64,000 nucleotides of DNA from Moniliella sp. 'wahieum' (lineage: Eukaryota): the NCBI GenBank assembly GCA_003971905.1, contig RSEE01000015.1, forward strand, positions 744,001-808,000. Direction: 5' to 3'. The translations under genes were made by a program, and so were the position numbers. The notes beneath the pieces are model-generated. The model had not been told where the DNA came from. It was given only the letters and a program-made list of their open reading frames with translations, and searched no databases. Shown here one piece after another: positions 49,222 to 52,389 of the stretch (positions within the stretch are counted from its first letter, which is position 1; each line of letters starts with the position of its first letter).

Positions 49222-49632
49222 ATTGGAGAGAAGTGGTGGTAACTGCGATGGTGGCGATGGTGGTGGCGTACGACAAATGCATCCAGTGCATGCGCGCAAA
49301 AGGTTATGAGCGACTGTTATTCCGCGGCGTTCGACGGTTGCCGGTTGCTCCTCGTCAATTCAATCACGTGACTCACTGCGGAGGGCGGAATTGTGTGCAG
49401 TGATCACCGATCGAGCCCGATCATGCATGCAATAACCAAGCTTCGCGCTTCCCGTGGCAGCTGAAGCCAGTGTATTGGAAGAGGCAGCGCAGTCTGGACG
49501 AATGGAAGCGGCGGGCCGATGGGAGGCGCAAAGAGCTGCCAGCGTGTCCACATGCGAGAGAAACAGAGAGACGCACATGTGCTGGCGAAGGGCACGGCCT
49601 CCAGTGCGTTCCACGTGCGCCCCGACAAGCGT

Positions 49633-49872
49633 TGTTGACTGTGATCCTCTGGCTCCCAGTCGGTAGACCAGGTTCGCCTCGGTTCCATCGGCTTCCACGC
49701 TGACGTCCCTGCGTGTCACTGTCCCTGTGCCCTGCACTCTCTCCTGTGTGACTCACTGTCCCTGTGCCTAGTCCAGCCTCCTATATAGATGCCTCTGTAC
49801 CCAGACCCAACTCTGGCTCCAATCCATCACCTTCTCCTCATCCTTCTGCCCGTCCGGCTCCCTAGGCCAACA
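49633..49872 (+). repeat. 5' LTR (240 bp)
   Basis: tgttgactgtgatcctctgg...ccctaggccaaca; contains TATA-like CTATATAG and a duplicated tcactgtccctgtgcc. Confidence 0.93.
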
Positions 49873-49994
49873 GAGCTACAATCTGATCCCCCCGGAAGGG
49901 GAGCGCTCTTCAAGCAAGCCCACCCCCAAGCCTACAAGCCCAAGCTAAGCCGCCAAGCCCACAAGACACACCCGTCCTCCCGCCCAACAACACC

Positions 49995-50074
49995 ACCGCC
50001 ACAATCGGCACCTTACCGCCACAATCGGCATACTACCGCCACAATCGGCATACTACCGCCACAATCGGCACACT
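49995..50074 (+). repeat. 20-bp minisatellite, 4 copies, inside the retroelement
   Basis: accgccacaatcggca followed by cctt, tact, tact and cact. Confidence 0.92.
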
Positions 50075-50788
50075 CGTCCCCCACAGATGGGGCAATGATT
50101 TTAGGGACAACACACGACGGAACAAAACGTGTCGGGTATCGTCAACGAGACGAAATTCCTCCAACGACAAAACGGCGCAGGCGAATCGCAGAAAGCGGGG
50201 GTGGCTGCTCATCAAGTGCCCCACCCACGGCTACACGCCCCGGATTGCCAATTCATCCGGGGCACCTGGGGAAAGGATGGGGGGGGGTGGTCACCCAACT
50301 TCTTCCACTCCTCTTTTTCAACAACAAAGAGAACCCAAACAGATCAGACGGTTGACGCATAGCGCCCGTTCATTTCCCATGCCCAATGGACCCCACTGGC
50401 ACCAGGCATGCGGAACCAAACAACTACCAAACGCATCCAATTTTGATGCCAAACGACCTTGGACCGCATTTACTCCAAGTTTCCAATTTTCTTTCACTAC
50501 ACCTATAACTGGTGCTTTTTACTTTTGCCCACCAAATCGCTTCGGGGCGCAACCCCTACTACTTTACTCTAAGACTTCTACAAGCATCTGGCGGTCGCAC
50601 AATACACCAACCACAAGCGCTCGGCTCGTTCAGGTGTCATCCTGGACAGCGGGGGTGTAGGCCAGTCGTGTGGCCATGCACAACTCCAGGCCATTCGTCC
50701 CGGTTGCCACTCAAGTCCTCCCCTCTCTACATCCACTGGCAGGAGCTCATCCCACAACCGATGTCTCGGGTTCCCTGGCCAGCGGGGG

Positions 50789-51023
50789 TGTTGACTGTGA
50801 TCCTCTGGCTCCCAGTCGGTAGACCAGGTTCGCCTCGGTTCCATCGGCTTCCACGCTGACGTCCCTGCGTGTCACTGTCCCTGTGCCCTGCACTCTCCTG
50901 TGTGACTCACTGTCCCTGTGCCTAGTCCAGCCTCCTATATAGATGCCTCTGTACCCAGACCCAACTCTGGCTCCAATCCATCACCTTCTCATCCTTCTGC
51001 CCGTCCGGCTCCCTAGGCCAACA
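50789..51023 (+). repeat. 3' LTR (235 bp)
   Basis: Matches the 5' LTR by eye except for a 2-bp and a 3-bp deletion in CT-rich runs. Confidence 0.93.
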
Positions 51024-51338
51024 AGCGTCGTTCGGAGCACACATCCGGATGAGGGCATTTATAAGGGCGGCCTTTGGATCGCCCGAATTGGAATGGGCTA
51101 GCCCGCCGGTGTCTCACACACGCATCCGTCGGGCCACCGCACGCCGCCTGCCTCTCCGGCACTCGGCCCCTCCCTTCCCATGCCTTCCGTGGCTTCCACA
51201 CCTTCCCTCTCGTGCCCACCCAGCCCACCTGCCGACGCGCCCACTGGCTGCCCTCCCCCTCCATCCGTCCACCTTCGTTCGTTGCAGCATGGACGTCGCC
51301 TTTGGTTTGCGCCTCATCGAGCGCCCGCGGACCTTGAC

Positions 51339-52389
51339 ATGGCCGACGAGCGCGAGGCCGTGCCCAATGGCACGCGTCACTTTGACGCGGACGGAGCCCT
51401 GTCGGACACTGGATCCACTAGTTCTCGCGAAAGCACAGATGGCCTGGTCCCCAACCAACGCAAGTCCATTATTGACCGCCGCGCCGTTGTCCGCTACTTC
51501 ACCGATCCTACCTTGACGCCCAAGCTGTTTGATGCGGTGCCCATCACCTCCCCTCACCCAGGGAGCGATGTTGCTGGGGTGGCCCCGCTGCCCACCCCGC
51601 CGGCCGAAGAGCCGTCTGTGGATTGCGCTCGGCCTACCTCGTTTGATGTGCTGCTCAAGCTGGATGTGAGCCGTGGCTGTGGCGGTCGTGTATGGCCCGC
51701 AGCCGAGCGGCTGGGTGCCTACCTTGCTTCCCACACCGACACGTTGGATTGGAAGAACAAAACAGTTGTCGAGCTGGGAGCCGGGACAGGTTTGTTGGGT
51801 CTGCTGGCAGCCCGATTGCAATTAGGCGCCGAAGTATGGGTGACGGACATGAGGTGCGTAGGATACGGGGAGCCGGGTCTGACTGCCAAAGCGACGGAAC
51901 TGACCAAGTTTGTGGGCCGTAATGTGCTAGCGCTATGATGGCCCTGATGCAGGAAAACGTGGAGCTGAATACGGGCAAACGTGATCCGGTCCATGTCAGC
52001 GAGCTGGTGTGGGGCCAACCACTGCCGTCCGATGTGCCCAGCAAGCCCGACGTGATGCTGTTGGCCGACTGTGTATACCTAGAAATTGCGTTCCAACCCT
52101 TGGTTGACACCCTCTATGCTCTGACCCGCCCTGCGGCGAAGGTCCGACGCAAGAGATCTTGTTTTGCTACCAAAAGCGCAGAAAGGCCGACAAGCGCTTC
52201 TTTACCCTGCTCAAGAAAAAGTTTGACGTGGTCAACGTGACGGACGACGATCCAGAGCGGGCAGAGATGTATCGTCGCAAGGGAACGCATCTGATGGTCT
52301 CTATCGTCGCGCTGGCCGCTAAAACCCTGTGTGGCCTGCGACGACTCTGCATCCCCACTAACGTTTTCATACCCAGTTACTATGAATGA
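51339..52389 (+). CDS. EFM6: Protein-lysine N-methyltransferase, METTL21/Efm6-like; 3' end approximate
   Basis: GCGGRVWPAA, VVELGAGTG (SAM motif I), ELVWG, LLADCVY and CYQKRRKADKRFF; intron at about 51854-51930. Confidence 0.8.

Follow-up and report, generated by a model that had tools for sequence, protein, structure and literature searches.

A TRIM element of Moniliella sp. 'wahieum' with a putative half-tRNA-Tyr primer and apparent genomic footprints of primer copying

In the strict ICTV wording, the genus Hemivirus is defined by a primer that is half of an initiator tRNA-Met. The corresponding register, in which a half-tRNA is extended from the 3'-OH of its nucleotide (nt) 40, is described in PMC1181622, and for Ty5 the primer is reported to be half of the initiator tRNA-Met (PMC5371799). 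According to the latter source, the plus strand of Ty1 and Ty3 runs into the primer, yet the primer-binding site (PBS) found in the genome is not derived from it. Fragments of other tRNAs are used as well. The PBS of the plant Bianca elements matches half of a tRNA-Ile (PMC6317226), and in most fungal Helenus TRIMs, and likewise in Copia-50_PHord and other Copia elements, priming relies on the anticodon loop of a mature tRNA-Tyr, -Ile, -Asp or -iMet (Kojima 2024, PMC10886601). The priming mode is already known and the site described here is one more example of it; the novelty implied in a preliminary description of this DNA does not hold, since Tyr anticodon-loop priming has been published for rust Copia elements and TRIMs (PMC10886601) and sites matching an internal part of tRNA-Arg for Candida elements (PMC4139406). 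What seems to be new are apparent genomic footprints of primer copying. Section 3.6 of PMC10886601 does not discuss a mismatch at position 37 or rewritten PBSs, and neither tails copied from the primer nor rewritten PBSs turned up for half-tRNA-primed elements in a literature search with most subscription journals and Repbase outside its range. Likewise, with subscription journals and Repbase outside the search, no description was found of tRNA-Tyr half priming in basidiomycetes other than rusts.

The window, that is, the whole 64,000-nucleotide stretch that was analysed, contains on its plus strand an element of 1.39 kb flanked by the target-site duplication (TSD) AGCGT (49628..49632, second copy at 51024..51028). 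It is composed of a 5' LTR of 240 bp (49633..49872; TGTTG...CAACA, with a TATA-like CTATATA and an imperfect 18-nt repeat), the PBS GAGCTACAATCTGA (49873..49886), an internal region (49887..50774), the polypurine-tract (PPT) region CTGGCCAGCGGGGG (50775..50788) and a 3' LTR of 235 bp (50789..51023). No substitution separates the two LTRs, which differ solely by two deletions, one of 2 and one of 3 bases. No gag or pol coding capacity was detected among the internal frames of more than 150 aa, as the two such frames on the plus strand matched no Pfam family. Having two short TG...CA LTRs, a PBS, a PPT and a TSD, the element is a TRIM, a non-coding, non-autonomous LTR element. Its internal region holds a tandem repeat (49990..50074, 4.2 copies of a 20-nt unit) with a PBS-like core, GCCACAATC, and this repeat could be a degenerate and multiplied primer site.

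The frame of a minus-strand gene ends at 49359, some 270 bp before the 5' LTR, and a lysine methyltransferase gene (PF10294) lies within 51102-51938 of the plus strand and starts some 300 bp beyond the 3' LTR; the TRIM was thus inserted between two divergent genes. The tRNA-derived sequence in the LTR of Helenus has A and B boxes. This sequence is the defining feature of Helenus (PMC10886601), whereas ARAGORN called no tRNA in the window, and the element is therefore not assigned to Helenus, with the qualification that a degenerate box could escape such a search.

As the preliminary description had noted, GAGCTACAATCTGA follows the 5' LTR directly, with no TGG after it. That description had read the site as the complement of a Tyr(GUA) anticodon arm, or of tRNA-His(GUG), and had suggested that a non-Met tRNA, cut down to a 5' half that extends two bases beyond the loop, could be the primer. 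A pattern combining a GUA or GUG anticodon arm with a downstream T-loop matched the genome at 34 places and the control at none. Of these, 31 are intron-containing tRNA-Tyr(GUA) genes with the arm TCAGA-TTGTAA-intron-CTCTGA (some resemble allelic pairs), and on our reading the other three are probably Leu, Ser and His genes with different arms. The deduced Tyr arm is borne out by the 31 genes except at position 37, where all of them have A and not the deduced G (the pattern permitted either). With A37, the C-type PBS of the window pairs with nt 40 to 27 of the spliced host tRNA at 13 of 14 positions, the sole mismatch being PBS position 4 (C, 49876) opposite A37. The variant with T at this position pairs at 14 of 14, as nt 27-40 of a tRNA-Tyr spliced at 37/38 are its exact complement. 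Predicted duplex energies are -15.5 kcal/mol for the C-type and -19.8 kcal/mol for the T-type.

This pairing supports half-tRNA priming of the kind proposed, with cleavage of the tRNA as an inferred part of it. The last three PBS-proximal bases pair solely with the second exon, so the primer would be the spliced tRNA. The match stops exactly at nt 27 in all families; the next base varies, and nt 26 would require C. At the other end, the terminal CA of the LTR could pair with nt 41-42 of the tRNA. As both LTRs retain this CA, nt 40 should be the last base of the primer, from which we infer that tRNA-Tyr is cleaved after that nucleotide. Downstream of the PBS, CGCTCTTC (49904..49911) is an exact complement of nt 26 to 19 and a possible second box. 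Pairing beyond nt 27 was matched by 124 of 500 shuffles for the TRIM, by 1 of 500 for Copia family C and by 0 of 500 for one copy of family D, and in every family tRNA-Ala scored equal to or higher than tRNA-Tyr. We therefore rejected an extended D-arm pairing as a Tyr-specific box, as it is not significant for the TRIM and tRNA-Ala does as well or better.

ARAGORN places the intron after A37 wherever it calls Tyr. In 30 of the 31 genes the intron ends in G, and in the remaining one (L072) in T; most of the introns have a GTGGA/TCCGC hairpin across the 3' splice site. The loop of the host tRNA-Tyr is unusual (U32...A37 C38). It differs at U32 and C38 from that implied by the rust PBS (C32...A37 A38), which begins GATTTACAGTCT in the supplement of PMC10886601, and TACAATCTG had no match in one supplementary file of that paper. 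A GC content of 58% and intron-rich tRNA genes give the host genome a fungal look. An Rfam tRNA search (63 of 2133 candidates scored) gave no Tyr gene at the 30 loci read. About 41 of the 63 scored matches had the same score and represent an identical intron-less tRNA-Ala(AGC), to which 23 of the 30 loci read were identical; its abundance may reflect a high gene number or carriage by a repeat.

The TRIM is present in about 100 copies in the genome. A DNA search with the element returned at least 65 matches, some 50 of them full length at 95-100% identity (best 40 of 188 candidates scored). The pattern GAGCYACAATCTG had 110 genome matches against 3 for its reversed control, and its T variant GAGTTACAATCTG had 18 against 0, an excess showing that the 14-mer is not due to chance; one further pattern was too narrow (copies with five C only, 22 matches) and was excluded from the counts. 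Conservation of the 14-mer in sibling copies, which the preliminary description had proposed as a check, was found: among 94 TRIM 5' junctions it is exact in 80, has T at position 4 in 8 and is shifted or altered by indels of 1-2 bases in 6, in an assembly with many small indels. Scored at position 4 only, the 94 junctions comprise 85 C-type and 9 T-type. All T-type matches were fetched deliberately and about 107 of some 109 C-type matches were examined, so this ratio is little biased.

None of the other well-covered sites, 1110 in all, varies as much as position 49876, at which T, the tRNA complement, replaces C in 9 of 93 covered copies. The next most variable sites reach 6/90 and 5/85, and the remaining C>T changes number 4 in 34,977 site-copies. 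These figures come from an indel-robust count against the window copy, used because most of the 51 variable columns of the TRIM alignment were indel artefacts; a tree of the copies was dropped (85 of 94 aligned, with 9 truncated or rearranged copies left out, 3 of them T-type). The nine T-type copies occupy at most seven separate loci and have no other substitution in common, so that one early mutation is indistinguishable from repeated rewriting. The 5-bp TSD is identical in 20 of 26 start/end pairings, a count that includes repeated loci and wrong pairings within arrays. The family is young. Many copies stand in tandem arrays with common LTRs (L003, L004, L007, L009, L020, L027 and others); one array on C145 is inverted, and arrays on C69 and C145 mix C- and T-type PBSs.

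The same 14-mer PBS is found in Copia families whose LTRs are unrelated to those of the TRIM. Family B (20 matches in its search) is represented by a copy of 5.27 kb with identical 211-bp LTRs (L129) and has the domain order protease-integrase-RT (PF22936, PF00665, PF07727). This is the order of copia, which makes family B a partner of the kind sought, a half-tRNA-primed Ty1/copia. Of its 19 junctions, 18 are C-type and one is without that base. In two copies (L129 and L130, L129:377-5300) the first long frame stops and the protease frame follows directly; other frame breaks vary between copies and may be assembly indels. A gene just downstream of one copy (L129:5664-6479), recognised by eye, is presumably a heat-shock-factor gene.

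Family C (L135:2618-7681) is very young, with a median distance near 0 over 55 junctions. Of these, 51 read GAGTTACATCCTTA, one is the exact Tyr complement and three are other variants, and all 55 have T at PBS position 4. GAGTTACATCCTTA pairs with tRNA-Tyr at 11 of 14 positions (-10.6 kcal/mol). The stretch paired with this tRNA is limited to its first 8 bases and is followed by one complementary to the D-arm. A second tRNA matching GAGTTACATCCTTA was sought in the genome, with no match. By tblastn, family C is 69% identical to one family-B-like RT-RH. The low-copy families D, E and F have other LTR ends and the T-type 14-mer, and diverge immediately after it. Copies of family E (L132:230-4810, L136:172-5622) have LTRs of the form TG...TA rather than TG...CA and 5-bp TSDs, and TA also precedes the PBS in families D and F. 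Outside this genome the nearest protein, which has no name, is 52% identical, and the matches with names are only about 26-33% identical. Metagenome matches (70) were set aside as chance, as none had a tblastn match to the Copia proteins tried.

Two observations connect the TRIM with these families. CTGGCCAGCGGGGG and the first 7 bases of the LTR together form 21 nt identical to families B and E, which points to one of these as helper. On contig C37, a chimera with a TRIM-C-TRIM arrangement (L321, C37:43200-51800) leads from a TRIM LTR into the PBS and interior of family C, and from a family C LTR into the PBS and interior of the TRIM, the parts being joined at the PBS, which points to co-packaging with family C.

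A few TRIM and Copia copies seem to hold DNA copied off the tRNA primer. A search for GAG followed by A, G or T and then T after the TRIM LTR end gave 12 occurrences, with T every time: 8 normal T-type copies, the C37 chimera and 3 aberrant junctions. In the array on C1, two PBSs are C-type, yet the final 3' LTR is followed by GAGTTACAATCTGA, the exact 14-nt tRNA complement, and then by CATG; CATG also precedes the first LTR, so that a 4-bp rather than 5-bp duplication surrounds the tailed element. The element at L094 has a C-type 5' PBS and 13 T-type bases after its 3' LTR. These lead directly into another copy, a partial one, at its PBS-like 20-nt repeat (the repeat at 49990..50074 of the window element), and at L023 a 5-base T-type stub stands between two LTRs. 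In family C, a pairwise comparison of copy L154 with its sister L140 shows 3 substitutions over 1612 aligned bases; each of them lies in the PBS, and that of L154 is thereby turned into the tRNA complement. The pairwise count is preferred to a MAFFT count, in which the 8/1601 differences outside the PBS are inflated by indels.

The mirror search looked for C-type LTR ends that continue in an unusual way and returned 7 matches. Three are indel forms of the normal PBS, three have GAGC alone in common (one is a proven TSD), and one is a stub, L320, in which the LTR is followed by GAGCTACA (8 nt, C-type) and unrelated DNA, with no PPT before the LTR and no TSD. Three C-type 13-mer matches without an LTR were set aside as chance. 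The family D LTR at L104, followed by the 14-mer and unrelated DNA, was rejected as a footprint, as the roughly 7 kb upstream of it contain no partner LTR and its family is T-type anyway. There are few footprints, all of them in a single assembly that is prone to indels, and the tails and L154 could alternatively derive from a T-type element.

This alternative can be stated more broadly: T-type PBSs, tails and L154 would result from an ordinary C>T mutation in one founder and from template switching between co-packaged elements, leaving the priming assignment as it stands. We consider it unlikely on balance, though the most serious competitor. The T-type copies have no shared private marker, yet their polyphyly is not demonstrable, and the mixed C69 and C145 arrays fit this alternative too. 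Given the inter-family PBS chimeras, L154 could have gained its 14 nt from a T-type TRIM or from another family, but this would require two switches 5-14 nt apart. An ordinary mutation also accounts poorly for the mismatched base being the most variable site, with changes solely toward the tRNA. T-type copies make up about one tenth of the TRIMs, whereas T is the base in those 3' tails that were found on TRIMs, and these tails stop at or before nt 27, without the internal sequence that an element donor would bring.

The mismatch itself could be explained away if mature tRNA-Tyr read G at position 37, through A37-to-inosine editing or splicing at 36/37; the primer would be the same, the C-type PBS would be a perfect match, and it would record a novelty of host tRNA processing. 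C-type sites dominate two families with unrelated LTRs (85 of 94 in the TRIM, 18 of 19 in family B, where the other lacks the base), and only C or T, both partners of G or I, occurs at PBS position 4. There is precedent elsewhere in a tRNA, as Bianca PBSs match an I34-edited half tRNA-Ile (PMC6317226). The G that ends 30 of 31 introns would, after 36/37 splicing, give exactly the loop that the preliminary description had deduced; however, tRNA-Gly genes of this genome have conserved intron ends too, so a conserved G need not be exonic, the L072 gene has T in its place, and ARAGORN puts the intron after A37. T is moreover the base in all 55 family C junctions, in the low-copy families and in the junctions that look primer-copied (the C1 tail, L094, the L023 stub and L154). 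It was these junctions that led us to downgrade A37-to-I editing, our first reading of the mismatch, and a G37 primer now appears improbable. Still less credit is due to the two other suggestions of the preliminary description, self-priming through a CAGA/TCTG hairpin across the LTR junction, as in Tf1, and a tRNA-His with a wobble pair. In self-priming of the Tf1/sushi type, the PBS is complementary over about 11 nt to the 5' end of the transcript in the LTR. Here the longest complementarity between LTR and PBS is 4 nt in the TRIM, 6 in family B and 4 in family C. The 4-bp hairpin is present in the predicted fold, but any complement of an anticodon stem forms one, the PBS region folds no better than shuffles (z 0.36), and families with LTRs ending in TA retain the 14-mer. 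None of the 34 tRNA matches combines the TCAGA stem with GTG, and the arm of the single His-like match is another one, in a search whose pattern could miss other T-loops.

The reading we prefer, and hold with considerable confidence, is that the element is a young non-autonomous TRIM, mobilised in trans by related Ty1/copia elements of this genome, and that nt 1-40 of the mature, spliced host tRNA-Tyr(GUA), its 5' half, serve as primer in the Hemivirus manner, with the primer copy mostly discarded and occasionally kept. A host nuclease would cut the spliced tRNA after nt 40, and the half would anneal through nt 27-40 to the 14-nt PBS and prime the minus strand, the single A37:C mismatch of the majority PBS being tolerated. 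The plus strand would begin at the PPT, copy the LTR, go on through 14 bases of the primer (nt 40 to 27) and halt at G26. This base carries a modification that blocks reverse transcriptase in many eukaryotic tRNAs, and it is probably modified here. The primer copy would normally be a dead end, with the PBS coming from the element RNA, which would allow mismatched PBSs to persist in three expanding families. Its rare transfer or integration would account for the T-type PBSs, for the tails behind 3' LTRs and for the single PBS that has been rewritten completely. Counting against this reading, the commonest PBS is mismatched four bases from the 3' end of the primer, and the majority PBS of family C pairs at only 11 of 14 positions.

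A further, speculative step, which we offer tentatively and think doubtful as a whole, is that integrated primer copies would fix the in vivo cut (after nt 40) and the stop of reverse transcription (before G26). Strand transfer between families that are not related would then use the shared 14-nt copy as a universal joint, as in the TRIM-Copia chimeras and tandem arrays, and selection might favour an imperfect PBS, for instance because the tRNA half or the intact tRNA would block it less. Imperfect PBSs are found in all three high-copy families and perfect ones in the low-copy families.

The published assignments cited here rest on complementarity alone, whereas the footprints in this genome would name the tRNA, its spliced state, base 37 and the window that was copied. 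A very young family with a C/T marker at its PBS makes it testable whether half-tRNA-primed elements inherit the PBS from the primer, and in the same system one can ask by what an elongator tRNA is cleaved behind nt 40. The anticodon-arm complement, which ends beside the LTR at tRNA nt 40, gives the TRIM a PBS of the Hemivirus type, and by this register, as read from the sequence, the TRIM is Hemivirus-type outside the strict definition of the genus, with its initiator tRNA-Met. It shares the nt-40 register of the half-tRNA primers of Drosophila copia, yeast Ty5, 1731 and Osser (PMC1181622, PMC5371799) and differs from these elements in its putative primer, a spliced elongator tRNA-Tyr instead of the initiator tRNA-Met. 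Published Ty1/copia elements with non-Met tRNA-fragment primers occur in long and short match forms, as here, but with another tRNA and in other hosts. As in Ty1 and Ty3, the PBS would usually be inherited from the element RNA, a non-inheritance of the primer under which mismatched PBSs could persist; in contrast to those two elements, which use the full 3' end of a tRNA, the primer here would be a half-tRNA, and the non-inheritance seems to be leaky, with the PBS occasionally rewritten from the primer.
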